DNA of 64,000 nt from contig JAQGDQ010000329.1 in assembly GCA_030141605.1 (NCBI GenBank), positions 203,028-267,027 on the forward strand, read 5' to 3'. The notes beneath the pieces are model-generated. The model searched no databases, was not told the DNA's origin, and saw nothing but the letters and a program-made list of their open reading frames with translations. Positions 1 to 58,305 of this stretch are shown here, piece after piece. Every line of letters starts with the position of its first letter. The stretch's first letter is position 1. This stretch comes from Tubiluchus corallicola (lineage: Eukaryota; Animalia; Priapulida). The position numbers and the translations under genes were made by a program.

Positions 1-340
1 CGCCACGTGAATTGGTTTAAGCAGCATGCTCTTACGGAAAGCCACAATGCGCTTACGAAAATCCACCAGTTACATCACAATTTTCAAGTGTATGGCGGCA
101 ACCACCGTGCCTGAAAATTTCTGTACAGCAGTAGTATAAATTAACTTTCTGGTTTATAGACAATTTTTGTCAATTTCTTTGTTATATTTTTCTAAATTTA
201 AGTGATGTACTTTCCTTTATTTCTCTACAGAAACAAAATTCTTGTCTATAAAACTTGTAAAGTTATAACTTTTGACAAAAGCAAAAAAATGAATTTAACA
301 ATGCAACTAATGACAGCATGCTAATGTAAAGCTCTATGAA

Positions 341-350
341 CAAAGGATAC
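341..350 (-). other. U12-type (minor spliceosome) 5' splice site of an EXOSC1 intron
   Basis: Minus strand directly after exon 351-401 reads GTATCCTTTG, the U12 donor consensus RTATCCTT. Confidence 0.85.
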
Positions 351-3300
351 TACTCTGGCTAAAATGATGTCACCGGGTCTGAAACTTTTGTAACACTCCA
401 CCTACAAAGACAACAAATAGCTGTATGGCGTGATCTATTCATTCAATAAACATAACAATAACATAAACCTTTGTTATATGCAGTTACGATAAGAAACCAA
501 ACAACATTTTTAAAAAAAGGATCAGTATTGCGTGTGTGCAAGTGTAAATAACAGTGATGGTGGTGGAATGGTGCTTAACGGAATAATGACCTTAAATACA
601 GTATGGCAGCATAAAAAAAACAGAGTTAGGGTAAACATACTTTATCTTTTTCCGTTGCTCTGATGTCTTCCTTACGTATTTGGCCTCTAAACGATTCCTG
701 CAGTACGCTGTCTTCCACACACAAAATAGCACATTTGCAATATCGTTGATATACATGAGTAATCTACTTGTATAAAAAACAGTTTTACTTTACATTTGAA
801 GTTCCAAAGTGAAGCGATTATAAAGGCACTTTAAAGAAAGCTATTTTCAAAGACAACTAAGCTTATATGTGTACATTTAAGTTCACAAAATTTTATACAA
901 AGATAATAATACAAATTTAATGCATTTTCCTTTTGAAATACAATCACTGTTACATGACTGAAATTTCACAATTCCATCACATAACATGCATAATCTGCAG
1001 ATTATGTAGTATAAAATAGTCATTAAAAACCATGTAACATCTTGTAAAATCAGTGAAAGTTTTCACCTTACCTTAGCTGTAACAATAGAACCAATGTGCG
1101 GTACAACCTTCTTTTCCACATCTCTTCTCACCTCAACAATCACTTTCTAATCATAAAATATAAAACAGCAATGAAACGGGTTTTGAGCACTATCTTTTGC
1201 ATACTAATAGTCTATATGCTATGCAGAAAATAGTGCAAATAATGTTTAAGTAAACAATTCACTACTTTTACATTACTTTTGCACTTTTCCATTTTCTTCT
1301 TTTGGCTTGGTTTGGTTTCAAAAATTTGGTAATTGTGGATTCGTTCCATCATTAACTGATAATGCCTTAATAAAAATAGTTAAATTAATGACAAAAATAA
1401 TCTAATTAATTGTAACTATACCAGCATGAGCAAACCAACACTTTGAGGTGGTGGTTTGGTTGGTGAAAGCTATTAGAATGAAATAAATCTTGCTTCGACC
1501 AAAGGTATTAAGGTTTATAATCTAAAGGTACAGTATGTAACAGGCTTCAACAGTATTCAACAGGCTCAGTCATAATTCTGTCACATAAAATTATTTACTT
1601 TTGGTCTAGTTTGACTTTAGAAATTTAACAATTTTCGATTCATTCTACAGCTTACTCGATAGTTATTTTTCTATCGACATGCAGCAGAAACAGTACTTAA
1701 AAGTAGGGCTGTCATATTTACATGTGTAAACATTAGCGTTTAGTTTAGTCACTCTAAATGTTTATTGATTTTTGTAAACAATAAATGATTGCCATTACCA
1801 TCACACTGCTTCTGAAATGACTATACTAGTAGTAGATGAAACACTTGCTTTTTTAACAGGGGGTATCTACAGTGATAATCTACTTTACTCATATATTATA
1901 ATTTTTTTAAATGTTATTTTCATCTGCTAGTAGCTAATATGTTACTATTTGATTGTGCATACCATCAGCATGAACATTTGTATATTTAACTCAGAAATTG
2001 AAGGGTTAAACTACTACAAGAGATAAACTTGTGCCATTTGAAATTTTGAACACTCCGAGCTTCTTTAATTTCCTGACATGGCTTATTAGTGAAATTTAAT
2101 GTTAAGTACTAAGCAGCCTGGCGAGCCTGTACAGCCAGACTGCTGCTTTTTGATACTCATAGGCTATCGAAGTATAATTTACCGCTACTATGGGGGAAAT
2201 ATTTGAAAGAATGGTTCACAAATTTCATGCCAAAGCAGCAGCTTCCCTCTCTGACTTTCATATTTTTACTATACGGCAGCAGACAAATTTGGCAGAATTT
2301 CATATTAAAATTCTTTAACAAACCTTTTAGTAGTAACAAACAATTGATAGCAATGACTACAATATTTAAAACAGAGCCACATGCAACCGTGTTTACCCAC
2401 ATAAAAGTTTATGTGTTAGGTAATCCAGATGTTACACTTGAACATAACATCAAAAGAATAACCAAATAGTTTAGGTAATAATAGCAGTTATTAATTAAGG
2501 CATCTACATGGTAAAGTTCAAGCTAGATCCTACAGATAAAAGTAATTATCAGCACAAATTTATTCTACATAGTCCCAAAGAATTTATTGCACGAGTTGGT
2601 ACCTTATACCTCCACTAATGCATAAACCTTGGCATATTATTTACATATAGAGTGTAAATGTAATCGTTCAATTTAAAAAACCTGACGGCCCTACTTATAA
2701 ATCCTATTAACAACTATTAATCATATACAAAAAATACTTTGTCATCTTTTTCATCCGACATGTGAACATAGCCAGCAAGACTTGCGTAGATAAAACCATG
2801 TCGACTGTAGGCTCCATTGCCCGGAATATGGTCATCACCTGAACGACAGATTCTCTGACCTAAACGAACATCAACACTAACATTACAAAAGTTTTACAAA
2901 TATTCATGTAAAAACAATAACATGCATTTTAAGCTTACTCGTTTACAATTTGTTTGCTTATTTAGTAAGCTATATATGCTTTCAAAAAATATAAGTATTG
3001 TAAAATGTGTGTGTAATATAATTTGCTCACATTTATAACGTAATTATTAAAACAATCTTATAATACAGTAGGCGCCGCTTAATAGACTCACTTTGGGACC
3101 CACGTATTTTGACCCAATTAACTGACTGATCCTATTAACCGATGGGTGTAGCATTACAGGTATAGAAGTATGAATCATCAGCTTACTACGCACTGCAAAG
3201 TTTTTTAATGAATTTTAGAAATGAAGTAATGCCTAAATTCTTTTGTGCAGTTAAAAATTAGAAAAAATATTTTAAAATATTAATTTATATAAGTGGATTA

Positions 3301-5744
3301 GCAATAAATTAAAAAGTATACTTTTCTAAATCACAGACTTTTCTCGAAGTCCGTTTATTTGCAAAAATTAAAAAATTTCTTCAAAGTCGGCTGCTTCATT
3401 TTCTCGCGAAGAAGTTGGCCCACAAAGTTCTCGTAATTATAAAAACGTTGAAAATCTGTTGTTGCGTGCCACTAAAATAGTTCTGAATCGTCTGCTCACT
3501 TACATTGCTCTTATTTGCTGTACGACGTTTCCTCTTGTAAGTCACAAGGAATACCAGCTGATTATACTGTACCTGCATCTTTGACTGTTAACTCATTAAG
3601 CCTGAAAGCTTGATTTGCAACGAGAGCATCAAAAGGAAACCGCTAGGCAAGTGATCAAATGTTTAGCTTCCAGAAATTCTTTGGATAACAGTGGGCGAGC
3701 AGGTAACAGATTCAGAGCAAAACTGCTATGCTAGCATATTAGCGCATGATAAACGTACCAGCTTACAAACAAAACAATACTAAATACATGATTATTTCTG
3801 TATACATAGCGCACAAAAGGGAAGTAAAGATGACATAAAAGTAGGAAAGGCTCTTTGGGCACATACAAATATCTTTTTTTAAGTAAGTGAATGAGAAATA
3901 CTGAGTCAATCATGCGGAGTTATTTGAGTCAATTACCTACAGTTTTTGTGTATATTTCAATAGAATGCCGTTCCAGGCATTTTTGAGTCAATTAAGCAAT
4001 TGAGTCTATTAACCGTGAGTCTATTAAGTGGTGCCTACTGTATTACAAAATATATACTTAATAGCTATTTAGAAAATTATGATAAAGACAAACATAATTT
4101 AAAAGTTTATAGCACGAACTCACAAATTGTGCCATAGTTATGACAACTTATCGTCTAAATGACACTTTATTATTTTATTTCCAGTTTTTTTATTTACTTA
4201 TGTTAATTTGTTGTTACATATGAATTTATCATGTTATATTAAAAGTTTTTCCAATGGCTTCAATGCTTGCTAAAGCAAGATCTGCCATTCCCTGAAGTTT
4301 CTGTGATGATTAATGATCAATTAACATAGCAGTCGTCCAATGGCAATGTTATCATAAAATGACAAATTTAAGCTAATTACTGACTGTCACAGACAAGTTT
4401 ATTTTACATATTACATACAATATTGTATATAAATATTACACTATTTATATATTTTATATATATATATGTATTGATTTTTATTTTCAATGATGACAAATTC
4501 ATTGTTGATAGGACAATAATATTAATACCAGGGTTTGCTCATGGGTGTTAACTTAGGATGGTATGGCACATTGCTCGGAATTCAAGCCTAACTTTGAAAT
4601 TTAACATTATTAAATTTCTATTCTTTCTTTCATTTACGAACTTGTTAAATCGGTGCAGAATTTGAGTAATGCAACATCTGCTTTAGGCTTATTTTGCTAA
4701 CTTTGGTTTGTTTGCATAATTTGCACACTTCTGTTTTGGCCTAAAATTCTGCTGTGTGTTACTGTGGATTTTTTTCTTTGGCCAAATATTTCTGCAGAGA
4801 ATTTGTTTCCTGTTTTTAGGTATTCTTGTCTAACTGTTTATGGTCACTACCATACAATGTGTGAACTACTTATCATTTAGTCTTATATTATTTTAAATGT
4901 TTGTGCTTTTTCAAGATATATGCTACAAACTATTGTACACAAGTTTTGTGTCAATCAAACCTCGCTTCACAGCATGTCTCTGTTTAGACATTGTCTATAC
5001 TAAAAGGTGAAATTTTGTTGGCTATTATCATTTCTATTTCTGTGGCTGACAGATAGCAGTTCACTGTTTTGCTCTACCCAAGACCTACAGTGCTGTTAAA
5101 ATTGCCCAATGTTGAATGCAATGTATGCCTAAGCACTGGTTGAGAAGCAAATAAGACTAAAAGTGGCTACCTAGCAATAATTTATTTATAAATTGTACTG
5201 ACGACTTTACTTTGGGAAGGATTTTATTTTTTGGTGTGACCACTTTACATAATTATAAGTTTTTTATTACTCAGGAACTGGTTAATTTCTTTACGTAAAT
5301 TCAATGCACTTTTTAACATGGGAACGCCTACACTAATATTTTTAAACAAGTCACGCCATCGCTGTATGCACTGCTATAATAGATTATAACAATTCTAACA
5401 GGACTAAAAATATAATTTTAATTACTAATTATTAATACTTTTCGTTTTAGTAGTACTTAATAGTAACACTACTGCTATGCCTGGCACGCTATTCACCAGT
5501 AAGTAAATGGCGTGTAGGTGTTAAGTAAGTAAAGTAAGTAAATGGCGTGTAAGCAAATAGTGGAGGCAATTATTGGTACTTGAACTTTTCTTTGACTTTA
5601 CCAGGGCAAAATGGACATTGCCACAAGGAATTGAAAGAAGTGAAAATAATTGCGATACTTCGATTATAATGATGTTTGTTATTTTTTTTTAATTTTAATG
5701 AAGAAAAAGTCACCAGGAACACAAATTGTCAAGTGTGCAGACAT
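351..5744 (-). CDS. EXOSC1: Exosome complex component CSL4 (EXOSC1), 5' part; 3' exons lie beyond the left edge
   Basis: Phase-consistent GT-AG exons 5714-5744 (MSAHLTICVPG), 2738-2859 (QRICRSGDDHIPGNGAYSRHGFIYASLAGYV...), 1072-1146 (KVIVEVRRDVEKKVVPHIGSIVTAK), 641-763 (ITHVYQRYCKCAIL...FRGQIRKEDIRATEKDK), 351-401 (VECYKSFRPGDIILARV). FRGxIRKEDxRATEKDK and FRPGDIxLAxV are hallmark Csl4 S1-domain motifs. Confidence 0.93.
3066..4040. mobile_element. Non-autonomous Tigger/pogo-like DNA transposon in an EXOSC1 intron
   Basis: ~26-bp TIRs CAGTAGGCGCCGCTTAATAGACTCAC / GTGAGTCTATTAAGTGGTGCCTACTG, with TA on both flanks; second copy at 17371. Confidence 0.85.
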
Positions 5745-5840
5745 GCTCTTTACAGATGAAATTTAGGAACGATTGATGCATCGTCACTTCCATATTCCAC
5801 AACGATCTTTCACTTTTTTCAACTTTATTATTGCACAATT

Positions 5841-5960
5841 GACTACGGCCAAATCACGTTGAAAACACCGGTTCTCGTCTGATCACCGAAGTTCAGCAAC
5901 GTAGAGCCTAGTTAGTACTTGGATGGGTGACCGCCTAGGAATACCAGGTGCTGTAAGCTT
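5841..5960 (+). rRNA. 5S rRNA-like head (probably the SINE's Pol III promoter rather than a functional 5S gene)
   Basis: GACTACGGCCA...GAAAACACCGGTTCTCGTCTGATCACCGAAGTTCAGCAAC...GTTAGTACTTGGATGGGTGACCGCCTAGGAATACCAGGTGCTGTAAGCTT matches metazoan 5S, including the internal control region, with several substitutions. Confidence 0.75.
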
Positions 5961-6243
5961 GCGGGATGCCCACACTGTATCTCGACACTAAGCGGAGGAG
6001 CTGCACAAGCAGCCAACGGCTAGAGGGCGAGGAGGTCAAGTTGCCCAACGACCATGTGTAGAGGAGTAAACCTTCCAAATCAGGAGTGGAGCCCCGAAGG
6101 CGGACCAGTGCACCCTGGAGATGTCAAGGATCAGATTGCTCAGCCACAGTCGGCACTGCGGCTCCATCAATGTGATCAATAACTGATTCTCTTAGTGCAC
6201 ACTCCATTGTCTTCCGAGACAGAAGGATGCCAACCATCCAACC
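5841..6243 (+). mobile_element. 5S rRNA-derived SINE (SINE3-type)
   Basis: 5841-5960 is a near full-length 5S rRNA-like sequence with no oligo-T terminator. It is followed by a ~280-bp GC-richer body ending CCAACCATCCAACC and flanked by a 14-bp direct repeat ATTATTGCACAATT (5827-5840, 6244-6257). Confidence 0.82.
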
Positions 6244-6257
6244 ATTATTGCACAATT

Positions 6258-6480
6258 CAATTTCAATTCAATTTCAATTTATTGCTCTAATACATAAATA
6301 TTGTGTACATTGGCAAAACACAGTACAGTACATGTAAATTGCACAAATACATTAATGTGCCATGGCAAAAATTGTCAATTACAAAAAAATGATAGTATAA
6401 GAACAAATACAATTATGCAACATTGAAAACCATGAGTTTGTACAACTTACTTAAATAGCCTACTTAAATTTAATATAAAA
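6258..6480 (-). mobile_element. Probable 3' tail fragment of a CR1/L2-type LINE
   Basis: Minus strand ends ...GCAATAAA followed by (TTGAA/TTGAAA)n short repeats, typical of CR1-clade 3' ends; boundaries approximate. Confidence 0.35.
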
Positions 6481-8830
6481 TTATGTGATCACTACGCAGA
6501 TTTAGTACCAAAGCAAGGGGGCGATAATTATTATTCACCAGATGCTCATTGCTCACCCTTGCAGTTAGCCAGCTACCCCTTCACAGTTGATACTTGAATA
6601 TACTTGAAAATTATGATGTAACTGATGGATTCTGTGACTTTTGACATGCTGCTTAAATTAATTCAAACTTCTGCAGCTTACCAGTCCTAACATTCATGCA
6701 AAAATATCACAAAATTAGCTATCTAATTTTTTTTGTAATAACTTATTATTATATTTTTGACGAAAGCTTATAGTGTATTACTTTTTTCAAAATGAATAAC
6801 GTCATTAGAAGACGAATGGGCTTTGAAAATAGATGGGACTTTGAAAACAGAGCGCCCAAGCCTGAAGTGATTGTGACTTCAAATTTAAAAGTGATTTTAC
6901 TAGTTAAGCGAGGCACTTATTACAATTTTATTACTAAATCCTTCTAACATTTTCGCAAACATTGAAACAAGCCTGTCTTCCCACAAAGCTACAGGTCTTT
7001 CCCGCAAAGATTTCTGCATCGCATTTTTTATATCATTTTCAATTCACATAATTTGGACACTATAAAAATGCATTCTGCCCAGTTTTGCTAGTTTCTACAA
7101 AATTATATTGATCCGTATTTTCCTCAAAATTGGATCCAATTAAATGTGCTAAAATGTATCAATGTTAAAATGTTATTGACATTAAAATTAATTATTTCGC
7201 AAATTTCTAATTATTGCAGAAATTGGGGAATGAAATATCTGTGTGGCCACATTGTGCGCTTGGTTGCGAGATAAAGCAAGTCCTGATTTAGTTAATAATT
7301 AGATTATGGATAAGTCACATGTCAAAAAATTTGAGCTTCGATTTTATTAAATGAAATGCAATTCTTAGGTAATCAAGCATGGCAAACTCAATGGAGGCAA
7401 TATTAAACATTACTAGTGTACGTTACTTCTGGCATGCTCAAGCTTTGGTGATGGATATTATTACAAATCTCTGACGTGGTTTATTTTTATGAAGTTTTAC
7501 ACTAGAACTATGAAATATTTGTTTTATGAAAATATTGGCTTGTTTTTCTTTCATTGGTGATGCAGTCGTGGAGTGCAGCTGGAAATCAGTCAGTAAGTTG
7601 GGAAAAAATAACCCACATTGCAAATTTTCAAAATGCGCAGCAAATTTAGGAAATTGTGAAAATCACAGGATTATTAAATTTTGTTGTGGTTTTTTGTATT
7701 TGTTTGTTTCATCCTTAAGTTTTTGAGCTTCAAAGTTAATATATTATAGCTGACCAGCATATACTACGGTCCCATAATTTTAGTTTAACATGATAGTTTG
7801 TGGTACTCAGTCAGTAGTTTCTATTGTCAATTTGTCATAGTCGCGCCTGTGGATAGTGTTTACATTCACTTTGTACATTCAATGCTGATAATATATTCAC
7901 AGTTGATGTGATTTAAATTTCACTGTGTTACTTGATAACCTCAATACGAGAAAGTGGTGATGTCAGATAAACATGGTCGTTCATCAAGTTTAAATATAGT
8001 GGAGGTAATTACGGAGTAACATTAGCCAATGCTGGGATGGCTATTTTCCGAGGTTTAGTTAACAGATATCTGAGATAGTGTTGCATGACCAAGGCATAAG
8101 TTTACTACGTCACACTACTTTTCATTAGTCATTACTCCTTTAAATTAATTAATTGATCATCACTGCATCACGTAATTTAAAAGTACTTGAGTTGGTGTGT
8201 GTGATTGGATAACGTATGTTTTTAGCCACCGCTTTCCATTTGTCTGGCTATCTGTTCATTGTACTAATTTCGTGTATATATTACTTTGGGATAAAAATGA
8301 AATGATGTAGTTGGTTTTGATTTGAGACATGTTACTGTTGCCATTCATCTCTATACAATATTACTGCTAACAAAAAGCAGCAAAATGTAGCACACAGAGT
8401 AGCTGTCAGCTGCGTCACAGTTGGACGGACCATATCAAACAAGAAAACATTGGTCAAGCTTCTTGCTATGAAACCTTGCTGCTTTGTTTTTTATTTTTGT
8501 TCTGTTCTTTGAGATTCTTTTGCATCAGACTTTACTTTCCAGAATATGCATTGCTCTTTGTGTAATATAGTAAACTTTGTAAGAATTAGTATTTAGCCTG
8601 GTAGGCCTCTTTTTTGTTTCTCTCTGCAAAATGTACTTAAAATTTAAATTTTATTGATGCTGGCATTGACCCGTATGTGACCTTGAACTCAGCCTTGTTT
8701 GAAATGTTCAACCTCCACCTCAATACAAAATTTATTTGGGGCTACAGCCCAGATCATTACTATAATTTTTCATAACTATTTTTGCTTATAAGGATTTTTT
8801 AAAAAGACCTACCATTCCCACTTTACAACT

Positions 8831-8872
<42 letters not shown>

Positions 8873-8904
8873 AAATAGTTAAGTTTGATTTGCATATTTT
8901 GCAG

Positions 8905-11900
8905 GCTTCCACTGGCTATGGCTCAGAATTTGAATATGATAGTGAACGAGAAAGAAAACGGTATGGTAATTAGACTTCATCACAGACTGTATAGTGACAT
9001 TAATGTCTGCTAAATACTAAATGTTTTTTATATTAGGAATAGGAATCCCCGAAGGCACATTTTCATCAAGCAAATCAAAGCCAATTTTTTATGCTTGATT
9101 GTCATTCTACCGAAGTTCATCCGCGTAATCTGTGTTGTACTGAGCCTAGTTCCGAATAAAATATCAAGTTAAAGTGGAACATCTGAACAGAGCCAAGCCG
9201 AATTTTTTACTGAAACCGAATTGAATTTTCTTGTAATATATTACTTAGAATGCAAACATTCCAGCAATTGAAAGGAATTGTAAAATTTGTGACATTTAAA
9301 TCGTTTTAAATTGGTAGTGGTTAGTGATCTCTGTAAAATTGTTCTGGTTGCTGAATCTGTGTTTTTATTTAATGATTAATGTAGTAAGGCATTACATATT
9401 TTAAAACATTTTAATTATTTAAAAAGCAGTCTAAGCTTTCACTAATTTATTTTCTCATGTACAAGCGAATACTCTGCGACCACACTATTGTGCATTGACA
9501 CTCATGAGTTGGATAGGGACCTACTGATGGTGCATCACACTTTTCAAGTTGTACAGAAACAGTACAAAAACAGAAACAAAATGTCTGGTGTTGTGCCATG
9601 TTGGCTGTTTACTATCACCTTTTTTCTGATAAGTTTTTGAGAGTAGCAGGCAAATATTTGGTCTGTTTAATATCATTTTCACAAAATGTTACCATAAGCT
9701 TTTTCATGTTACCACGATAATATTACCAATGATTGATGATGATCGTAAAAAGGTCAAAGGTTAAGTGTACCAAACAGCGTATTTGTGTACACTTGACAAT
9801 GCCTCCCAACCCAAGCTACTATAATACTAACAGTTTTAACAGCTAACTGGATAACTCTACGCACAGACTAATGCATAATTAAAGTCCACTTAAAACAGCT
9901 GAAGTTACTAAACTGATATGGGAGACGGCTTTGTTTACCCACATTTCACGTGACTATTGTACTTAAGACACGTTGCTGTGGTACATTTAACCTTTGACCT
10001 ACAGCAACTGTGAGTGTGCACAACGAAACTGTGAAATGATATACATACATACTTACGTTATATGTGCATTGTCACAAAGACATGCTTTCCAGCTGTTTAA
10101 CTTTGCAACTTTTTAGTGTACAGTCCAGAAAGTATGCCAAAATTCAAAAGCCTTTTCCTCTTTTAATACCGTTACAACATAATTTGTTTATATTTCGCCA
10201 GACGTGTTTGCTGTTTACATCTTTTTTCTGCTGGATAGATGTAATTTTACATGAATGTCACCATTTTATATCAGGTTAGTTATGCATGTCTATTGCTACT
10301 ACTTTTTCTAACTTGTATGTTCAGTTGATGCTCAGGTAACTTTTTCTTCTCATTTCAGTTTTAAGAGGAATGATCTAACTGCAAAAGAACCCATCCGAGC
10401 TGAGAATACTTGTTCGTCGAAGAAACATTATGAAAAAGAGCTTAAGAGGTTGGCCCATTTTAACAGTTTGGGGTGATGATTTATAAATAAAATGTAATTT
10501 TGGCAATCCTAACAAACCATGTAATTATATTTAAAGCATCACTTTAGTCATAAAATGAAATTCTAGTACCTGTAGAAGTTGAGCACCAGGTTCATTTGAT
10601 GTATTAATCCCTGATTGCGTTATCAGACCAGTCAGTTTTATCATCTTATTTATTTTTTGAGTTGTTTTGAGCATAACAATAATTGGTTATTCTTATTCAT
10701 CCTGTCCTCTGTCTGTTTGCTCATGCCACTGTTTTATTTGTCACTTAGTAAATTAAAATTAGCAAAAATTTGCTCATTTATTCTAACTATACCGGTTCAT
10801 ATCTGTGTCTGACTTTGTCTAAGAAATCCATCATGTAAAATGTTATTTTTACAATTTTTTAAGAATGAAACGTCGAGCTAGGAGTGCATCCCCAGTGCAT
10901 GAGCGAACAGACAGGGTAAAGTCGCACAACCGAAAGAAAAGACATCACCATAATGATATGAACCAAGAGCCTGACAGTGACGAACATGAATCAGACCGGT
11001 CTTCACACAGAAAAAAACGCAAGAGGCGATCGCCAATCATAAAGAGAGAGCCTTCGGCAGACCTAGATCCCAATCTGCCAATCAAAACTGAGCCTGTGGA
11101 TAATGGTTATGGTAGACGTTCACATTCGAGGCAGGATAGCCAAGATGTTAGTCGGCTTCATGACAAAGACGATAAAAATAAAAAGGCAAAATCAACTGAA
11201 AAACAAAAGCCAAATTTCGAAATCAGTGGTAAACTTGCAGAGGACACTAACACATATCGTGGAGTTGTAATAAAGTACAACCAACCGCCGGAAGCAAGAA
11301 GGCCCAAAACTCGTTGGAGGTTGTATCCGTTTAAGGGAGAAGCTACACTCCCTGTGCTGTATGTACATCGTCAAAGTGCGTATCTACTTGGTAGAGATCG
11401 ACTAGTGGCTGATATACCTGTTGATCATCCGTCGTGTTCAAAGCAGCATGCAGTGTTGCAGTTTCGGCTGGTGAACTATAACCGAGAAGATGGAACAGTT
11501 GGTCGTAGAGTCAGGCCATTCATAATTGATCTGGAGTCAGCTAACGGCACGTTTGTAAATAACAAAAAAATTGAGTCCAGGGTTTATGTAGAATTGATGG
11601 AAAAAGATGTGCTGAAGTTTGGCTACAGTTCTCGTGAATATGTGCTGCTGCATGAACAGTCCAAAGATGATGAAGCTGATCACGAGGATGCTGACTAATT
11701 TGACTTATTTGCTTATTTCAAATTCTTATCTTGTGTTTTTGACTAAGAAGTTAGACATTCTTAAACATGTGTAATTAGACCTTTGAAGTCTAGGGCTCTT
11801 TAGGATAAAATGGCAACATCATTGCAGCAACTTTTATCGATAATTGAATTGATCTGTCTATGTCTCCATTATTAAATGAAAATATGTGAACAGTATGTCC

Positions 11901-14900
11901 TGAAACATTTTAAACATTATTGTTTGTATAGTTTCAGTTAGATCGCATGGCATTTATGAAAGTTATATAGTTTAAACGGGCAATTTGGTCATGGAACTAT
12001 TGAAACATACAACCTGTCAATTCGACTTCTAACTTGAATATTTGTTGGCTAAGCTGCAAAACTTATTATTTTTTCTCAGTTTTAAAAATTTCTGTTTTAT
12101 CCCAATCGTGTCACTATGTGAAATGTGTTGTTGTCGCCTGAACATTTTTTGCTGTAAATAACTAATAAATGTAGAAAGAAACATGAGCTGTCTTGTGTTA
12201 AACATATCACTTAATTTGCTGATGTAGTGCATTTTGACGAAGTTCTATAGCAATGCAACAACTTTGTGTATGCAAACATGTAGTACAGTAGATTCTATTC
12301 AAGTGAGTCGCAATTTTCCATAGCTTCTTATTTCCAATGTTTATAAACAACCGATGATACACCTTCCTAAGTATGGCCTTTGATGTGCTAACACTAAAAT
12401 TTTTATTCGTAGAATTAAGAAAGTTTCATAACTACAATATACATACAACACAAAATTATCATTAAAATGTTTCCTGGCACAGATATAGGAACTTCCGAAA
12501 ATAAACAAGCACTTTGAATTGACTTGTACACTTAGCAACACCTTAGTAGCAGTTCATTAAAATCAATAAATAGTTCGTTACAAGAATTTGCAAATTTTGT
12601 GAATGTTGCATCAGAACATTTCTTAGTGGCATCATCCAGTGACAGTTAGTTACAATTTTTTGTAGCAGTCTGGAATGCAATATGTGTAGCAATTGTTTAG
12701 TTTTATAACCAAAACTTTGAAATAGATTTAAAATATCAATTCATGTGTACGCACTTGTTGCCACTCACTTTAATGATTAGTCAAACGCTTCCAGTTATTA
12801 AATTGTCCATAAAATGTGCCAAGACGTTATACTTGAAATCACTGTGATGGCTAATGAAGGCGGCAGCATTTGTTTTGTTTTTGACAGTCATAACAGCATG
12901 AATTTATATCTTACTGGCATGCAAAATTGCTACAGCTATTTTTTTCAGTACTTGTAGAATTGTAATTCAGAATTTCTTTGTTATAGGTACCAAGGGCAGC
13001 CATACAAATTTAGCACTTCTGGCTTAGATGCTGTATCCATTTTGGTAAACTAGGGACAAGATTTCTTCAGTTAACATCAAATTCACAGAGGAATTTAGTG
13101 GCCCTTTTGTGGTTTATCATTTTGAAAAGTGTAGGCCTTTGTTAGTACATCATAAATTGGCTTTACTGTTTGTTTAACTGCTTGAAGCATAGCAGACTTA
13201 TCATGATAGCAGAATAATGTGTTATTTGATTATAATTTAATACTGATTATGTGCAAAATGTTTCATGGTTTCTATTAGTAAAACCTCCTTATACTGCTCG
13301 CTATGCGACTCTAGAAAAAGCTGACATTAAGCAAGTTTGGCGTGATGATGAGATGCATTAATACATACATGTCTATGCAAATATGGACATTTTCTTTTAT
13401 CAAAAAATTGGGTGTTAAACGAGGTTAGCATTATAAATGCGGGCTATATAACGAGGTTTGGCTGCATTATATTTTAGTAATTCACAACATTTTCTTAACA
13501 CTTCTGTCAGTTCACAAGGCATAAACTCTTAGTCAACAACTACTTACTTTATTATCCTGGTGCCAGAGAAGAACATTTCAAACGAGATTCGTAAGTTTTA
13601 ATCATTCTGAAACTCATGTTATTTAACATTGTTGATCGTCAAACTAACAGTTATTAAATATAGATAGACTAAATTTTTTATACTTACTTTATTCAGTCAT
13701 TCTCCTTTATCAAATGGTGTCGGCCCACTTTAAAACTGCACGCTTTCATTTCAGAATAAGTGAAGTTTTACTTGTGTTTTCTATTCACATGGTGATTGAG
13801 GATTGATTTTTTCTAAACAAGAATGCCAATTCTTTGCTTCTGGGTTATGTGTTAACAAACTGTGTAGGTTAAGGAAAAATTCATGATGGGGTTTCACTTT
13901 AACAGCAGGAAATATTTTTGGTTTTCCTCATCCTGAAAAAATTGTCATTTTCTGTGCCTTTTAATCCCAAAATTCAACGTGTTTAGGTCAAAAGACAAAA
14001 AGGACATAGACGTCATCAGAGAGCATCATCAGTTTCTCTGGCGTGAAGATGACGATACTGACAGTTTGTGGTAAATTTCTAACAAGGTTTTGCCTAAATT
14101 TGTGATAGTGATTCTTACTAAAACTTACGTTAAACTCAAAAGGCAGTCAGTAGCCGTATGCATTTAACAGTGGTGTTTAGTACATTGTTTACACAATATT
14201 GTTTCACTCTTGTCAAAGTTTATGTTGGCATCTATAGGCATCTATGGTAAAGTAAAGGTGCAAATGGCAAAACTGAAAAATTAACATTAAAGTGGTTCAC
14301 AGTAAAATGGTAAACAATAAGCATGGAGATGTTTTTCGTAAATAATTCTGAAAGTAGTCATTTTCTTGCAGGGAAAAGAGGCTCGCAAAGAAATACTATG
14401 ACAAGCTTTTTAAAGAGTACTGTATCTGTGATCTTTCTCGATATAAAGAAAATAAGGTGATTAGTGATGTGCGGGTGCACTTAGTTGTTATACAACTGAA
14501 GAATCATGGTTTCTTAGTTTGTTATTCAAAAAAGATGTTTTCTTTGTATCCTTGACTGTCAGTCATTTTACCTTAACTAGCACAAAAAAATTATCTATAA
14601 TTATTCATTTGCAGTTGATACTTCTTGTAGGTAATGTAACCTGTGTTCATTCGTATAACATTATTGCATCTACATTGTTAGCCATCCTAAAAATCTCAGT
14701 TTTATTCTTAAGGTTGCAATGAGATGGAGAATAGAAGCTGAAGTAATATCTGGAAAAGGTACGTTTGATATCCCATTCGTTGTACATTCATTGTATTGGG
14801 AGTTGCAAGTTTTGCAAAATATTTGCAAGTTGCAGGTCTGCGCATGGTCAGAAATGTCATTGTTCTACAAGAATCTATGGGACTCATTTTTAAATTGTAT

Positions 14901-17900
14901 TTATAAATATACAGTCTAGCCTCGTTATCTCGCCCCTCGTTATGCCGCCAAACTCGTCTCTCGCCATAGATTTTACCAGGACGGATTTCCTGCTTTGATA
15001 TTTACCTCGTTAAATTGCCACCCTCGCCACGTCATGCTAGGATGAGTACTTAGGTAAACTATATTCGTTATGTCGCCAAACAGACAAACTCAGAGGTGAA
15101 TCGATCAATACATATACTGCGTGTGGATCAATATAACCGCGGTATGTAGACAATGCTGCTGTACTCAACAGACAGACATAATTAATCTAGTGTGTGTCTC
15201 ACCAGGATTAGATTAGGAGTGCTGTGGTTGGTTAATGCGCAGAGAAACTAAAGCGTCACCGATATCCTTACTCTATAACACCAAAGCTGCGTTTAAGTTT
15301 GAGTTTCCACAAAGTGTGAGCAACTTTACATGATGTCTCTGAAGCGAAAACTGTTTTGTCTTAATCCTGAACAAAAAAAGGAAATTTGTATTTATCATAC
15401 GAACGGGCAGGCCGCGGGCAGCAGCGATGAAGATGACACGGGCAGTTGCGATGAAGACGATGGCTCATCTCATGTATCGAATGACCAGGCAGCAGCAGCT
15501 GTCGACACACTGATGCGATATTTTGAACAGTCTGACATCGTCACAAGTGACGATATTCAAGGATTGTGTGTATCATCAATGAAACAGTCGTCTCTTCTGA
15601 ATTATTTCAGTCGTCAGTATCTCATTTGTGAACATTTCTAAATCTTTTGCTATGTTTATTGCATTTAAGTGTATACTCGAAAAAGGTTTTTTAAATAAAA
15701 AAATAACATTCTAAGATTATTTTTATGACATTTTTTTCATTTCTGATTTAATGTTGATTGGTATCATAATGCGAAATATATTTTATATGTACATAGAGGA
15801 ACACTATGTTAATCAACTATTATGTACAGTATGTATATACATATAGACTAACTTCGTTATATCACCGTTATCTCGCCATACTCGCCTCTCGCTAAAAATT
15901 TGCCCTAGACAGACAGGGGCGAGTATACTGTTAGACTGTATATGTTAATACAATGTTAATGGCCCTGTTGCAGATATACGCTTCGCTCGGCGATGAGGTA
16001 TTGAAAAAAAGTACAAGCGCTCACGGTACGTCGTCCACACTTAGTGCATTTATATAATGAATAAACTTTCTGTGCACTTTTTACATTAGTTGTCTGACTA
16101 GTTTATATGACCACCAGTGAACACAAAAAAGGGACCTCAGAACGAGTCAACGGACTGCCGTGCAGTCACATACAATATACACTTAGTGTGCCAATAGGAA
16201 AGAATAAAGTTTTGCAAACTGATGTTTGATGGGAAATGCGTAAGATTTGGGTTATCATAATAAGTCTTTTCACAGTCTTCACAGGTCAAAGGTTATGTGT
16301 ACCATATCAGTGTGTCTTAACTATAACCATCACACAGCATGTGCGTAAAGCAAAGCCATCTGCTCTGTACCAATTCAGTAATTCACGGTTGTTTTACATG
16401 GGCTTTACTTAATTATGCATTATTCTGTGCGTAGAGTGATTTACTAGCAGGATCTTGCTTGGGAACAAGAAAAAATTAACTGGGTGAGGTTCTCGGTAGC
16501 TGTTAAAACTGTTACTATTATAATGGCTTGGGCCATGAGGTGTTGTCAAGTGTACACAAATGCGTTGTCTGGTACACTTAACTTTTGAGCTTTTCGCAAT
16601 CATCATCAATCACTGGAACTGTGAAAAAGCTTATTATGTTAAGTCAAACTGTTATGCTTAAAGGCACTTAGAGGTTGATGTGGGTGTGAATACTTAATTT
16701 TAAATAAGGAATAGGCAGAGTTTCCTTACTGTGTATGACCTGAAAGCTTGTAACGAGGCAGATTCAACCCTGTGAGTTTACTCGACATTACGTGTCATTT
16801 GACAATCAAAGATGGCAAATGACAGCTTCGAGTCACTTGATGGCAATTTCTAGGACATGTCTAAGAAAAGCTCGATGCTATATTTAATAAAAAATAATAA
16901 AACCACAATGGCTCATTTTTTACTAGTCAAGGTTTCCCACATTTCTAAGCTTTTGTAGGACACTTTCAATGCGGAAATAACAAGTGCAACAACACAGAAT
17001 CGCTTAGGTCTTGGGAGGTCAATTTTGGATATGTGGAACATGGAGAGAAGAAGAATGCTCTAGTCAAACTAAGTATGTAACTATGATATTTCATTAAACT
17101 GAGACAAAACATATCTTTCTTACTAGAGATCCATATATGAATAGACTATAGGCTTATTAACACAGATCGAATAATTCAAAGTAACCCACTCCGCATTTAC
17201 CCAATGCCACAAATAAGTAAACACAATATACTGGGCACTTATAAAATTGCACTGGTAACTGTGATTAATGATTGTATCAATGATTAAATGTATTGTATGA
17301 ACTGCATTGATTGTAGGCATATAGTATTCTATTATATCGTACGGTAATGTATTGTTTTAAATCAATAATACAGTAGGCACCGCTTAATAGACTCACTTTG
17401 GGACCGAAGTGTTTTGACCCAATTAACCGACTGAACCTATTAACCGATGGGTGTAGTATTCCTGGTATAGAAGTTTGAGTCACCAGCTTACTATGCAAAA
17501 GTTTTTAATGAATTTTAGAAACGAAGTAATGCCTAAATTTCTTTGTGCAGTTAAAAATTAAAAAATGTATTTTAAAATATCAAATATTAATTTATATAAC
17601 TGAATTAGCAATGCATTAAAAAGTATACTTTTCTAAATCAGACAAGTCTGTTTATTTGCAAAAATTACAAAAATTCCTTCAAAGTCAGCTGTTTCATTTC
17701 ATCGCAAAGAAGTTGGCTCACAAAGTTCTCATAATGACAAAAACATTGAAAATCTGTTGTACGATGCATAAATTCTCGTAAAACACTTAGTGCTTGGCGT
17801 GCTTAAATTGTTGGTGATGCCCACGTTTCCCCGCAAGTAGCTTCGTCTGTAGTTTTGCCTAAGCTTCTGCTTGCTATTGTGACACACTTACTGTACTGTA

Positions 17901-19577
17901 CCTGTATCCCAGGCATAATGGCAAGATCTACCTGGTTAAACTTTCTGGCAAAGACAGCCTCAAAGGCAAACCGCTAAGCAAGTGATTAAATGTTTAGCCT
18001 CCAGGAATTCTTGGGTAACGAGGTTAATTGCAGTAGATGTGCTGGTCAAAGGAAACCATCAGGCTAGCATATTAGCGTATGATAAACGTTCCTGCTTACA
18101 ACAGACCAAACGGTACTTAACATGATTATTTCTATGTATATTATAGGACAAAAGCGAACTAAGATGATGTGAAAGTCATAAAAGCTTATTAGTCACACGA
18201 AAGTGTCTTACTGAAGTCAGTTATTGTATTGTATTGAATAATGGCTGCATAAAATGATCGTGACTCTCTTTTCTATTGTAAATGCAACTGAACCTGCTTA
18301 ATAAATCAATGATTTTTGTGTTATGATAGTTCAATTAGTCAGTGTGGATGGTATTAATTGTGTGATTAGCTTTCATTTGGTTTGTTCTGCTACTTTAGTT
18401 TAGTATTTTCATGTGCTCCTTGAACAACAGTTTTTTTCAAATACCAGTTTTTTATCTGTGATAAATTGCTGTTCATTAACTTCCTTATCATACACAACTG
18501 TTATTCAGTATAATAGTAAATAAAGATTATTCTATCTATCTAGGAATTGGGAAAGTGCATTAATAAAAACCATTAGCCATGTGCTTTGCTTTATTTTTGT
18601 AGGATTATGCCTGGACTGCTCTTACATGCTGAATTATCATCATAAGTAAGTAAACATTTTCTCGTATAGTTACTGAGTTAAATATCTTAGCAATGTATTG
18701 TGTTTTAGGTTAATTCATTTTATTAGTAGGCTGTATTTTTTGTTCATTTTCCAGAAGAAAAGATGTAACAAACAAGCGAAAAAAGAAAATCCTTACTCAC
18801 CATGGTGTTGATGAATTGACATCTACACCTGCTACCACTTCGAAGGGTAAGCATCATGGTTTACATCTCCCAGCAAATCTGTACAAGAAAACTTGTTCAC
18901 TTTTGTAAAAATTATAAATCATCTGGATTTTTTCAGACATTCCGTCTTCATCAAATAAAGGTACAATTTCATCAGAACAATCTGAAGATGAACCAGACCA
19001 GGTTGCAGAGTCTGCAGAAGATATATGGAAAGCGCCAGTTAAATTCACAGAAGATAAAACAAGGTTACATTTCATTTACTTTCTGCATTTTGCATTCTTT
19101 TAAAAAATTTTGGTAATAGTTAGGGTATGAACAGAAACTGGAAAATTCTACTTGCACAAAATTTTAAAATTAAATTGTTTGGATGAATATATACTTTATC
19201 AAATGTTTCAGTATTTGATTAGAGTGTATCAATATATCAAAGAATATTTCGCTACCCCAAGAAGACGTGTCATTATATATCATGAATGCATTAAAAGTAG
19301 TACATACTTCTTTTGTTTTGAAGATTCCTGGTAAGGGAAAGGTGCTGTTTGTTTGCTTTTCTGCAATGTTAAATGTGTCTTTATGTTCTACTTCTAATTA
19401 TGTGTAAGTGTGAACAGTTTCTAATGCCTTAATCAAGTGCAGTAACGATGACAACCAGTAATTATCCTTTTATTCTTTGTAAGCTTATATATAATGTTGT
19501 GCCGTTGTTTTATTTACTGTCTTTATTTTTTTAGGAATGAAGAATTTGAAGAATATTTTGAAGACCTGTTCTTATAA
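8905..19577 (+). CDS. FRA10AC1: Protein FRA10AC1 homolog (spliceosome-associated); start-codon exon not located
   Basis: Twelve phase-consistent exons: 8905-8960, 10359-10448, 12987-13032, 13511-13590, 13987-14070, 14372-14456, 14713-14758, 16959-17072, 18603-18645, 18755-18846, 18937-19063, 19535-19577 (906 nt, ends TAA). They encode DVIREHHQFLW, WEKRLAKKYYDKLFKEYCICDLSRYKENK, RWRIEAEVISGKG, CGNNKC, LRSWEVNFGYVEHGEKKNALVKLRLCLDCSYMLNYHHK and C-terminal EEFEEYFEDLFL, all matching FRA10AC1. AATAAA at 19941. Confidence 0.93.
9690..10040. mobile_element. MITE-like repeat, copy 1
   Basis: Internal inverted repeats AGGTCAAAGGTTAAGTGTACCA / TGGTACATTTAACCTTTGACCT; homologous in opposite orientation to 16255-16650. 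Confidence 0.55.
10865..11698 (+). CDS. SNIP1: Smad nuclear-interacting protein 1 (RES complex, Pml1 ortholog), intronless, nested in a FRA10AC1 intron
   Basis: 277-aa ORF with an R/S/K-rich N-terminus, KPNFEISGKLAEDTNTYRGVVIKYNQPPEARRP..RWRLYPFK and an FHA domain (YLLGRDR..DIPVDHPSCSKQHAVLQFR..IIDLESANGTFVN..LKFGYSSREYVLLHE). Acceptor-like TTTTTTAAG ends at 10863; ATTAAA at 11871. Confidence 0.95.
   Translation: MKRRARSASPVHERTDRVKSHNRKKRHHHNDMNQEPDSDEHESDRSSHRKKRKRRSPIIKREPSADLDPNLPIKTEPVDNGYGRRSHSRQDSQDVSRLHDKDDKNKKAKSTEKQKPNFEISGKLAEDTNTYRGVVIKYNQPPEARRPKTRWRLYPFKGEATLPVLYVHRQSAYLLGRDRLVADIPVDHPSCSKQHAVLQFRLVNYNREDGTVGRRVRPFIIDLESANGTFVNNKKIESRVYVELMEKDVLKFGYSSREYVLLHEQSKDDEADHEDAD
13033..13510 (+). 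other. U12-type intron of FRA10AC1
   Basis: Donor GTATCCATTT; branch-point-like TTTCTTAAC at 13491-13499, 11 nt before the exon start; no long pyrimidine tract. Joins ...GLDA to FTRHKLLVNNY in phase 0. Confidence 0.8.
13276..13464. mobile_element. ~190-200-bp Tigger-type MITE (other members at ~43628-43781, ~45254-45390, 51357-51559)
   Basis: Ends AGTAAAACCTC...GAGGTTTGGCTG; shared internal ATGTCTATGCAAATAT and AAAAATTGGG segments across copies. Confidence 0.6.
14912..15938 (+). mobile_element. Internally deleted Tigger/pogo element with residual ORF 15330-15641
   Basis: TA-CAGTCTA...TAGACTG-TA ends with subterminal CTCGTTA/TCGCC repeats. The ORF begins like a CENP-B/Tigger HTH (KRKLFCLNPEQKKEIC) and ends like a Tigger C-terminus (acidic tract, AAAAVDTLMRYFEQ, KQSSLLNYF); no DDE domain. 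Confidence 0.78.
16255..16650. mobile_element. MITE-like repeat, copy 2 (inverted relative to 9690-10040)
   Basis: Reverse-complement match, e.g. TGTCAAGTGTACACAAAT..TGGTACACTTAAC..ATCATCATCAATCA vs 9730-9800. Confidence 0.55.
17371..18180. mobile_element. Second, truncated copy of the 3066-4040 Tigger-like element
   Basis: TA-CAGTAGGCACCGCTTAATAGACTCACTTTGGGACC start and long colinear similarity to 3066-3850; right TIR not seen. Confidence 0.8.
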
Positions 19578-24910: not shown

Positions 24911-25452
24911 CTTTGTCTCTTTGGGTTAAATTGCCTATACAAAAAATTGGTTAAAACGATGGTAATTATTTGTTTGTTAATGTAAGTAACCTTAGATTAT
25001 TTTTACTTCAGTTATAAGATGTGCGAAACGAAACAAAGGTTTTGTATATTAGGCACTGAGTATAACCCCGAGAGACAAACTAACGACAATTCTGTCAATT
25101 CATGATACGCTTATTGTGACAAAACTGCATCTTAAAATTTCATTTATATTTAAACTTCTTATGTTTGGTGATCTTTCCTGAAATGAATAAACAAAATGTC
25201 TAGTCTTTAGTCAGCTGATAGTTGATACTGAAATTGCTGTTTCTGATTCTGATAAAGCAAGTAATATTGCCAATTCTCTCAATTTACCAAGGCTCTCAAT
25301 CTTCACTGTAGCTTAATGTTACAGCAATGCTGCAATAGTAAGTAACAGTCATGCATGATAAATCAATATGTCTGTCATAATATCCACAGAGCCCTTCAAG
25401 TTTCTAAAGCTTCTCGTGTTTATACACTGTACCTTTTCAATGTGTTTCAGCT

Positions 25453-28400
25453 ATGACAGATATCAGGAGGAGGTACTTTGTCAACAAGCTCGCTGACTAC
25501 AAGGAAGGACACATTGTCGTCGATAAAGAAAAATGGACGGAACGAATCATTTACTTGGTCAATAATATTACAAAGGATCAACCGGCTAAACTAGACCACT
25601 GTGATGGGGGTCTGTATGTGGGTTGTGCAGGTATTTCCTACACACTTTTTAGTCTGGCAAGATATGGTGCATTTAAAGACAATGAGACCATGCTGCTGAA
25701 AGCTGCTGAGAGTTATGCCACCACGGCGTTTCAGTTTGCGCAACTTCCAGAAAATAAGAATGACCAGCAGATGAGGTCTTCATTTTTGCTGGGCAACCTG
25801 GGTGCCTATGCTGTCGCTGCCGTTGTGTATAATGCTATTGGTCGTGATGATTTGACAGCAACGTGTTTAACTGAGTATGCACTGGCTGCGAATCTTGTAA
25901 CACCAACACATTTCTTACGTTGCGGATCTGATGAACTGTTTGTTGGCAGAGCTGGCTACCTGTGTGGTCTACTAATGTTGCATAAATTCACTGGACAACA
26001 GGTAAAGCTTTTAAAACCCTGCATGGCATTGCCAAAAACACTACTTGTTTTAAATTACCAAATAGAATTTGATTGTTAATGCACTGTAGGAACTTACACT
26101 CATTTTCTCATTCATTATTACTATTTTCTTTAGACATTTTTTATCTTCACACAAAGCAGTCTATAAAATATTGATATAATAAATGGCAATTTTTTCAACA
26201 TTACATTTATCTCAGAAGTTCTATACAACATACAAAATTAATATGTTTATAATATGCATATAAAGTCACACTCACACACACGCATGCATGCACGCACACA
26301 CGCGCGCACACACATGTCAACAGAAAAACCTTATTGTGTAAGGTTATGCTAGGACTAGTACCTTGCTCGTGAAGTTTAGTCCGCTAAGATTGCCACGTTC
26401 AGATTACCAGAATCAGTATGGAGAATGGAATCTTTAGCCTGACTCAACCATCTATTTACAGACTAGAGACTCCGTGTTGCTTAACTTGTGGTGCTCAGCA
26501 AAAATCGTGATCGCTCATCTATTCTCCTTGCCCTCATGCTTTTAAAACTAGACTAAAAATTCAAGCTGTCGATCACGTGCATTGTCTTCAACATGCACAT
26601 GATGACTCACACCTTCCTAGGCTCCTAGCTGACATAAGGAATCTGGTCTACCAGACGTTTGCTTCTGTGTGAACAATATTGTCAACTAGAAGGATCTCAC
26701 TCTGTGGTAAGCTTTGAAAACAACCCCTTTGGCATTTGATTTGTTCTGATACGCTTTCGGCAAAACCAAGTTGAACGTTTGTGTTTCATGTTTAGGCCTT
26801 TATGGTTTACATACGTTTAATATTAATTGCTACACATACATGTATGCTATGCATCTGGTAAAACTTTGCCTCTTGAATACAGGTGGTAAGCCAAGAACTG
26901 GTTGATGAAATTTGCTCTGCAATAATCAAGTCTGGTAAGGAATACTCAAAGCGTCATCGATCACCATCGCCTCTTATGTATGCTTACTATGACACAGAGT
27001 ATATAGGTAAATTCCTAAGTTAAGGTACTTTAAATTTAGTTTGTGAGATATGAGAACCGTTGTTATTAACTTTTTATTTTGTCAAATGAATTTCTTATAA
27101 AATTCTGTTTGTTCAAAATTTTTGGGGCATATTTGGTTTACAAAATGTTTAACTCGAAGTTATATGCAAATTTTTGATGCTGATTTATCTTATAAAACAC
27201 GAAAAAAGAGAGCTTATTTTTTAAAATCCGAGTTTATAGTGACAGTAAAATGTTAAACAGATACCACAGTGTACACGTTTAATTTTAAAGTCTTGTTTCC
27301 TTGTTTATGTTATCTTTGTTAACAGGACCTGCGCATGGCATAGCTGGTATTCTGCAGATGTTGCTGTGTTTTCCCGAATTTGTTAAAAAGGATCCGACTG
27401 TGGAGAAACTAGTCAGAGAATCAGTTGAATTTATATTGTCTTTAGAGCAATCGAATCACAATTATCCAGCAGGCATGGATGAAGTGAGTTTCTCATTTAT
27501 TTTAGTCTTAATTCTTAATCACATTCTTACCTATTAACAGCTAACATTTAAAGAAGAAGAAAATGAAATTTTGAAGTATATCTAAAGAACTTTCCAAACA
27601 AAGTTATATTACTTATTATTTCGCTTAAACTTTTGAAAGATTTATGTAACTGGAAAAGAAAATTCTGAATGACTTACTATATTCACTTCACCTGGTGAAA
27701 TGGCACTACATTCCAATGCGCACCACAGATTCATCAAAAAACACATTAATTTTATTGACAATATAAAGTAATTTAAACCTTTGCTTAGCAAAGATTGTGC
27801 TACGAATGTTCTGATTATTTTTTCAAACTTACTGCAATGTTAAGTATACTTGTTTCAAACGACTTATTGTTAAAATGGCTGCACCTAAAGGTCATCACGG
27901 GAATTTAAGTTTAATAAGCTTTATACAACGTTACTCGTTAACGTTACAATGTTAACGAAGCTCGTTGTCCTATAAGAGGGCATGTAACTGATGTAGCAGT
28001 AAAATTTCAAGGCAAATTTCTTAAGCTTGATTTATGAAGAGTGTTTTCTTGTACTTTAACTGTCTTTGGCATTATCCAGGATGCTTACAATATCCTGATA
28101 TTGTTCTACAAAATTTTGAATTTTTTAGAGTGCAATATCAATTTTCACCACAGCAAGTAGTATTTGCCTACTGCTGCTGCTGCAGCTGTCAAGATACAAA
28201 AGTTCAAACACGATAATCCATTGATCTGACACTGATATGCTTGCTTGTGTCAGCTTTACATTTTGGGCGTGAAGTTCTTGCTGCTTCTTAACACTGCTGG
28301 CTAGGCTTTGTTTGTTCTTGTTCAACTGAATCAATACTGTGAGCTGGATAAATTGCTTTTTAACCAAAAGTCTGAAACTGCAGCAGCTAATTCGGGGCAA

Positions 28401-57574: not shown

Positions 57575-58305
57575 CTAAAAAGCACTTTTTTTAATTATTT
57601 TCATCTAACTAATTATACTCACACACATTGACGTTAATAAGAAATTAAGATGAATGGGAACGTGTAATTAATGAAAACAATTGTCATTCCACACTCATAG
57701 ACGTAACTTACAACTTATGAACAGTAAACAGAGCATCAGGCACATACATTGCATACTAAGTGTCAGAAACAGATTAGAATTTATTAACACTCTAGTGCAA
57801 ATGAAAAAAAGCACAATAAGTTCAATAATATAAATCTGACAGAATAGTATATAAAAGTAAAAGATTTATTTAAAACAAGACATTTTGGTTTAATCGCTAA
57901 ACGTCTGAATTTTATATTGCATTACAATAATTATTGTAATGTTAGAGACATAAAATTTACGTAAAAATTATTGCTGACAAATGCTCTAAAAATAAATTAG
58001 TGAAGCCCAGATAGCAACCGATGGCATAAATTTTTAAAAATTTTACAATTTCAATTTGTTATGCTTAGGTTACAAAAAAACTAATGTGAATTTAATTTTT
58101 GTTACAGATATGTCCGCTAAAAATGATTTAACAAATAAACCAAGGCATTCTGATATGTCACGAGAATCATGATGTGATTTAAAATGCCTAATTCAAAACT
58201 ATAGTTTGCACGGCATCTATAAAATATCATTGACAAAGAAAATATGTATGTATGAATAATATGATATATGAATATCCATGACTATATATCTATAATTTGA
58301 TCAGA

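Follow-up and report, generated by a model that had tools for sequence, protein, structure and literature searches.

A SNIP1 exon within intron 3 of FRA10AC1 in the priapulid Tubiluchus corallicola and its probable alternative splicing from a shared start

The FRA10AC1 locus and its SNIP1 frame

In the priapulid Tubiluchus corallicola, two spliceosome proteins, FRA10AC1 and SNIP1, are encoded together in a stretch of 64,000 nucleotides (nt) of genomic DNA (assembly GCA_030141605.1, contig JAQGDQ010000329.1, positions 203,028 to 267,027 of the forward strand; hereafter the window, within which all positions are numbered). SNIP1 lies as a single exon within intron 3 of FRA10AC1, and it is probable that alternative splicing at the shared donor of exon 3 yields either a 341-residue SNIP1 beginning with 64 FRA10AC1 residues or a 316-residue FRA10AC1.

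The FRA10AC1 model comprises 13 coding exons between 7960 and 19577 of the plus strand (Table 1), with every intron bounded by GT and AG, and its 316-amino-acid (aa) product matches the domain PF09725. This product is identical at 272 of 316 residues, with zero gaps, to P0242, a 316-aa protein retrieved by a search with one FRA10AC1 exon; P0242 comes from a source contig of 2,329 nt and is probably transcript-derived, given that so short a contig unites all 13 exons. Sequence search returned zero solved-structure relatives of FRA10AC1. An ATG at 4558 was considered as the start of coding exon 1 and was dropped in favour of 7960-8004 after the comparison with P0242. A strong donor-like site directly follows this ATG (4558-4566, score 6.4) and may close a non-coding first exon of FRA10AC1.

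The SNIP1 frame opens with the ATG at 10865 and extends over 277 codons to a TAA at 11696-11698; it is intact, intronless and on the same strand as its host, within the intron at 10449-12986. It carries a C-terminal FHA domain (PF00498, E 4.5e-16), matches human SNIP1 (PDB 5z56_X) at E 7e-78 and is, by homology, the ortholog of the human protein. Residues K157, K193, R257 and E258 of the frame align with human K265, K301, R365 and E366; the first three of these bind phosphorylated SF3B1 and the fourth is a disease residue, according to the available part of the source (PMC13194972).

Two runs cover this stretch, namely X1, which is spliced, and X2, which is >99% identical to the window. X1 differs from the window at 46 of 642 coding letters (~93% identity) and hence comes from a related species. 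Within the FHA half of the frame (11242-11498), 18 of the 21 listed differences of X1 are silent; on the basis of these mostly silent differences and of the kept phospho-SF3B1-binding and disease residues, the SNIP1 frame looks functional. SNIP1 and FRA10AC1 are two distinct conserved genes, as the FHA and Fra10Ac1 domains never occur together among the matches listed (0/240 SNIP1 and 0/120 FRA10AC1 homologs). The X2 contigs over 10128-11861, the SNIP1 region, have a depth of 73-114, compared with about 1-22 on most nearby single-copy stretches.

Splicing into the SNIP1 exon

The sequence in front of the SNIP1 frame is arranged as an entry point for splicing. A T-rich acceptor runs up to 10863, an A occupies 10864 and the SNIP1 ATG follows at once; after exon 3, which ends in phase 2, the acceptors at 10864 and 12987 open their exons in the same phase. 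When scored with a matrix built from the 12 acceptors of FRA10AC1 itself, 10864 ranks first among the 149 AG sites of the intron, with a score of 8.6 versus -1.0 for 12987 when the latter is left out of its own matrix. This junction is present in X1: contig 1 consists of exon 3, a 415-letter skip with GT and AG at its ends, and then SNIP1 (junction 10448^10864, the shorter flank being 89 letters long). At its 5' side the same contig has a loose end equal to the end of exon 2, and exons 2-3 are therefore joined in frame to the SNIP1 exon. P0242 passes from exon 3 straight to exon 4 with no gap, which represents skipping of the SNIP1 exon in one relative. One transcription unit is likely, because X1 shows 10448^10864 with exon 2 attached and P0242 runs exon 3 into exon 4.

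The initial annotation of this DNA had placed an exon ending in phase 2 at 10359-10448, its donor at 10449, an acceptor ending at 10863, the ATG at 10865, the end of the open reading frame (ORF) at 11698, a second acceptor of the same phase at 12987 and an ATTAAA at 11871, and all of these positions hold. The junction it predicted, 10448^10864, is the one found in X1 contig 1, that is, in a relative and not in the window's species. Its proposal that one transcription unit gives SNIP1 a FRA10AC1 N-terminus through a choice between 10864 and 12987 gains support in relatives (X1 and P0242) and from the acceptor score. It was right that the start is shared with FRA10AC1, and its estimate of about 49 or more shared residues is replaced by a length of 64, encoded by exons 7960-8004, 8905-8960 and 10359-10448 (191 nt plus the junction base).

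The 64-residue head combines basic and acidic residues (15 K/R and 12 D/E) and brings the predicted SNIP1 product to its full 341 residues. An acidic motif of the shared exons is found in 27 of the 42 FRA10AC1 homologs of at least 290 aa and in 0 of the 240 SNIP1 homologs among the matches listed, and distant FRA10AC1 homologs align over the joint of exons 3 and 4 with no space for an insert; judged by sequence comparison, the shared N-terminal exons are derived from FRA10AC1, i.e. from the host. The ESS2-binding region of human FRA10AC1 spans aa 146-253 in the available part of its description (PMC10048706). As the shared head lies upstream of this region and far from the FHA domain, it need harm neither protein. 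None of the predicted splice forms combines the FHA domain with the Fra10Ac1 domain.

Exit from the SNIP1 exon

X1 also informs on how the SNIP1 exon is left. Contig 5 spans exon 4 and extends to exon 5, and the 22 letters preceding exon 4 differ from exon 3. When both strands of the window are compared, they fit best at 11749-11770, where 5 letters differ (7 at the runner-up) and a GT comes immediately after; among 300 simulated introns, one reached 5 mismatches and none did so with a GT. The divergence of this piece (5/22, versus 46/642 for coding letters; Fisher p 0.02) is expected for an untranslated region (UTR). In X1, the 3' UTR of SNIP1 is spliced at donor 11770|11771 onward to FRA10AC1 exon 4, and the simplest reading of this splice is that 10864-11770 is likely a cassette exon of 907 nt. 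The donor is weak, scoring 2.7 (real donors 0.6-7.6) and falling outside the top 15 of 138 GT sites. Contig depths were not used for ranking isoforms. Going by these sole spliced data, the SNIP1 exon need not be a terminal one selected through polyadenylation, as it was initially viewed.

Table 1. Coordinates of the shared, SNIP1 and FRA10AC1 features in the window
Feature	Position	Strand	Basis and remarks
Shared coding exon 1	7960..8004	+	Start codon 7960; 13/15 residues identical to the start of P0242; GT donor; 5' edge beyond the start codon unmapped
Shared coding exon 2	8905..8960	+	Acidic G-Y-x-S-x-F motif of FRA10AC1 proteins; matches P0242; final letters recur as the loose 5' end of contig 1 in X1
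Shared coding exon 3	10359..10448	+	Ends in phase 2; donor at 10449 is the branch point of both products; covered by X1 contig 1
Intron removed for SNIP1 (415 nt)	10449..10863	+	X1 joint skipping 415 letters, GT..AG; top-scoring AG of 149
SNIP1 guest exon as a likely cassette (907 nt)	10864..11770	+	1 junction base, ORF 10865-11698, 72 nt of 3' UTR, donor 11771; entry seen in X1; continuity over 11535-11748 inferred
Open frame, +1 to SNIP1	11688..11770	+	ATG 8 nt before the SNIP1 stop; via donor 11770 in frame with FRA10AC1 exons 4-13; would yield 280 aa
ATTAAA, candidate poly(A) signal	11871..11876	+	Sequence only; AATAAA also at 12164
FRA10AC1 exon 4 (first FRA10AC1-specific)	12987..13032	+	Directly after exon 3 in P0242; X1 contig 5 enters from 11770 and exits to 13511
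FRA10AC1 exons 5-8	13511-13590, 13987-14070, 14372-14456, 14713-14758	+	P0242 match; GT-AG introns
FRA10AC1 exons 9-13	16959-17072, 18603-18645, 18755-18846, 18937-19063, 19535-19577 (stop)	+	P0242 match; GT-AG introns

Downstream of SNIP1, a second frame remains open across the exit junction (Table 1), and in X1 the joining at 11770 creates an in-frame ATG. Shuffled sequences contain an equally long stop-free UTR frame in 19% of cases, so the frame at 11688 may be due to chance and bicistronic use of the included transcript is held at low probability.

Comparison with known systems

Human SNIP1, of the RES complex, and human FRA10AC1 are orthologous to the proteins of the window, which keep the phospho-binding residues of the FHA domain, and in vertebrates the two are separate genes. 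Same-strand guest coding exons spliced from the 5' exons of a host occur at the cholinergic locus, where VAChT is nested in ChAT, and in the alternative last exon of CSB-PGBD3; these differ from the present locus in that the shared cholinergic exon is largely non-coding and PGBD3 encodes a transposase rather than a core housekeeping protein. Fly SNIP1 we take to be CG17168. The FlyBase class of 'genes with CDS overlap' comprises 10 pairs and one triplet of distinct Drosophila genes with a common promoter, first exons, translation start and short N-terminal coding stretch, as the available part of its account describes it; within the main text covered, SNIP1 and FRA10AC1 are not named and CG17168 gives 0 matches, with the supplementary list outside that scope (PMC4528330).

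The closest likeness is to the Su(var)3-9/eIF2-gamma fusion of insects, here taken from the available part of its description (Krauss et al. 2006; PMC1435931). As in that fusion, a whole conserved gene forms one large exon in the intron of an unrelated host on the same strand, and alternative splicing provides, here probably, both products with a common host-derived N-terminus, of 79-84 aa in insects and 64 here (PMC1435931). Transcripts that join the guest exon to host exons are likewise common to both systems, with insect forms that hold all exons and, here, the 11770 splice of X1 (PMC1435931). The insect partners are functionally unrelated, whereas SNIP1 and FRA10AC1 are both spliceosome proteins; the insect fusion has been mapped over ~400 million years, whereas the SNIP1/FRA10AC1 arrangement is shown in the window's species and in one relative, X1 (PMC1435931). 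The layout matches this known type. The arrangement was initially thought to be undescribed, which stands for the pair, not found in print, and fails for the type, which has been described in the parts of the two accounts covered (PMC1435931; PMC4528330). A literature search, with thin coverage of subscription journals, yielded no report of a SNIP1-FRA10AC1 gene fusion, and the available part of PMC13736545 only lists FRA10AC1 among spliceosome-associated hits.

Proposed mechanism and alternative explanations

A single promoter would drive exons 1-3, after which the exon-3 donor would be paired with one of two acceptors. Joined to 10864, it would give a SNIP1 mRNA that either ends at a poly(A) site near 11890 or is spliced on, with exons 4-13 as UTR; joined to 12987, it would give the FRA10AC1 mRNA. 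The window's species would presumably use the same splices as its relatives, with both forms occurring in one animal. As any one transcript gives only one of the two proteins, the ratio of SNIP1 to FRA10AC1 would follow from how often the exon is included. SNIP1 may have entered the FRA10AC1 intron by insertion, possibly retroposition, its original start codon being retained a single base past the acceptor it acquired. A stable fusion that arose by accident appears the more likely origin, as has been argued for Su(var)3-9/eIF2-gamma, for which the part of the report available judges the fusion accidental and proposes retroposition as its source (PMC1435931).

Several points weigh against alternative splicing of a SNIP1 cassette as described here. 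X1 is guessed to be RNA, and each of its junctions rests on one contig; a DNA copy bearing such joints would itself be a processed transcript. The sole near-identical run, X2, is unspliced across 10359, 10448, 10864, 11770, 12987 and 13032, and no RNA of the window's species was found; X2 is uninformative on splicing and ends in adapter-like letters. Inclusion is seen in X1 and skipping in P0242, which are two different relatives (they differ in exon 3), and the presence of SNIP1 in the FRA10AC1 intron is shown for the window and X1, not for the species of P0242. X1 has no 10448^12987 joint listed, which does not amount to absence because contigs drop rare forms; it also has no listed contig over 11535-11748, leaving the cassette unbridged, and none beyond exon 6, but a filter drops records, so neither gap is evidence of absence. 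The stop of SNIP1 in the included form lies 72 nt before a junction, with 10 junctions downstream; by the 50-55 nt rule, under which a stop farther upstream of a junction can mark an mRNA for decay, the exon-included mRNA could be a target. No protein with both the FRA10AC1 start and the FHA domain of SNIP1 is present among the matches listed (120 of 3,663 and 120 of 171 for SNIP1; 120 of 413 for FRA10AC1).

The alternatives divide into those that concern the exit from the SNIP1 exon and those that concern its entry or purpose. That the exon is mainly terminal is less likely than not; on this reading, 10864-spliced transcripts would receive their poly(A) tail near 11890 and splicing at 11770 would yield only a minor side form. 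The ATTAAA at 11871, the AATAAA at 12164 and the weakness of the 11770 donor (2.7) would suit this, and the insect Su(var)3-9/eIF2-gamma forms with all exons are termed splice artefacts in the portion of that report available (PMC1435931); however, the single contig that covers exon 4 in X1 reaches it from 11770, poly(A) ends were not observed, near 11890 or otherwise, and, with 11 poly(A)-type hexamers in the intron 10449-12986, a single one near the SNIP1 stop is weak evidence. Distinctly unlikely is the reading of the 22 letters of X1 as part of a small exon of its own (starting at 11748 or 11751 and ending at 11770), which from the phase-0 donor 10915 would add ~24 residues to FRA10AC1 and from exon 3 would act as a frame-breaking poison exon. 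A T-rich tract and branch-point-like words do precede tandem AGs at 11747 and 11750, donor 10915 scores 4.6 on a route that leaves the frame open, and the path from exon 3 to 11751, which meets a stop at once, would agree with the genomic path over exactly 22 letters, the point at which contig 5 starts. Nevertheless, the acceptors concerned score 0.3 and -2.0 versus 8.6 for 10864, no further joint is listed for X1 contig 1 as it passes 10448 and 10915, and an insert is absent at this point from P0242 and distant homologs; in addition, X1 contigs also end where there is no link to splicing, and the coding exons are less diverged than this piece (p 0.02).

With respect to entry, there is a very slim chance that the 415-nt intron holds a promoter for SNIP1 alone, which would then be a plain nested gene with a 277-aa product, and that the X1 junction reflects leaky splicing. 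Such a gene would accord with the A at -3 of the ATG at 10865, with one TATA-like word at 10482, with the raised X2 depth over 10128-11861 and with P0001, the closest SNIP1 relative among the matches listed, whose own Met (a gene caller's choice) lies about nine residues before the stretch aligned to the window's start. It is opposed by the eight ATGs of the intron, all out of frame, the nearest to the ORF lying 32 and 25 nt ahead of it, by the origin in exon 3 of the X1 contig over the ORF start, with no X1 cover listed within the intron, and by acceptor 10864 being both the best in the intron and in phase; a nested gene shares no exon with its host, but exons 2-3 are joined to the SNIP1 exon in X1. 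As for purpose, we consider it unlikely that the fusion is kept as a feedback switch, an idea raised in the initial annotation; in such a switch, weaker splicing would favour the proximal acceptor or poly(A) site and so shift output from FRA10AC1 towards SNIP1, or the other way round. Splicing is the field of action of both products, and the competing acceptors are unequal (8.6 for 10864 versus -1.0 for 12987); in the parts of the sources available, SNIP1 brings in the RES complex when the spliceosome is activated (PMC13194972), and Chlamydomonas lacking FRA10 regains splicing at donor and acceptor sites that carry mutations, which makes a switch thinkable only (PMC5881031). Against this, the direction of the loop is unreadable from sequence, the region 10420-10900 folds no better than shuffles (z 0.51) and the insect precedent is judged an unselected accident in the available part of the report (PMC1435931). 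Slim, too, is the chance of a self-tuning module, in which the splicing efficiency of intron 3 would set the ratio of SNIP1 (activation-stage) to FRA10AC1 (late fidelity) and the included mRNA would be bicistronic, with ribosomes restarting at the AUG that overlaps the SNIP1 stop to give a 280-aa FRA10AC1 keeping the ESS2-binding core.

Distribution and neighbouring features

When the 64-residue start was searched against 1.84 billion representatives, a single match was obtained, a FRA10AC1-like fragment of 75 aa, and no fused protein. Close relatives are scarce in the databases searched, the best SNIP1 match being 61% identical. Among 80 metagenome SNIP1 loci, 42 of them of at least 10 kb and all distant (36-73% identical), FRA10AC1 was nearby in 0, with the window as a positive control. 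X2, in which cover is patchy, holds no SNIP1-like contig at 80-95% identity among 6 contigs. A SNIP1 tree of 36 rows drawn from the 240 listed, plus the window, is poorly resolved and places Priapulus as the nearest named row, without support; trimming misplaced at least five rows. The SNIP1 model of Priapulus caudatus (P0021, XP_014667962.1) is annotated as partial and lacks a start Met.

Upstream of FRA10AC1, an exon of an exosome subunit (2738-2860, minus strand; PF14382 ECR1_N, likely EXOSC1/Csl4) stands head to head with it, ~5 kb before its start codon, and a single 5S rRNA copy (5841-5959, plus strand; RF00001, 97 bits) is situated between the two genes. Exons of a LanC-like gene (PF05147) follow FRA10AC1 downstream (25408-33410, plus strand). 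Two related copies of a high-copy repeat are found upstream of FRA10AC1 (3064-4045) and in its intron 9 (17367-18141). The end of the window (57000-64000) has a steady GC skew near -0.22 over ~6 kb and no ORF of at least 95 aa, and is possibly a tandem array.

Implications

Together with its support from spliced sequence, the locus would represent an independent case of two ancient, unrelated genes that share a start and N-terminal exons, a class that is rare and known mainly from insects. The fusion is unusual because both partners are spliceosome proteins, and so belong to the very machine that would choose between them. Gene annotation of such a locus is hazardous, as one gene may be called and the other lost, or the start of SNIP1 placed 64 residues too late. 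The locus may also serve as a natural test of whether such a fusion is a neutral accident or a regulatory one, through the inclusion ratio of a single exon when splicing is disturbed.

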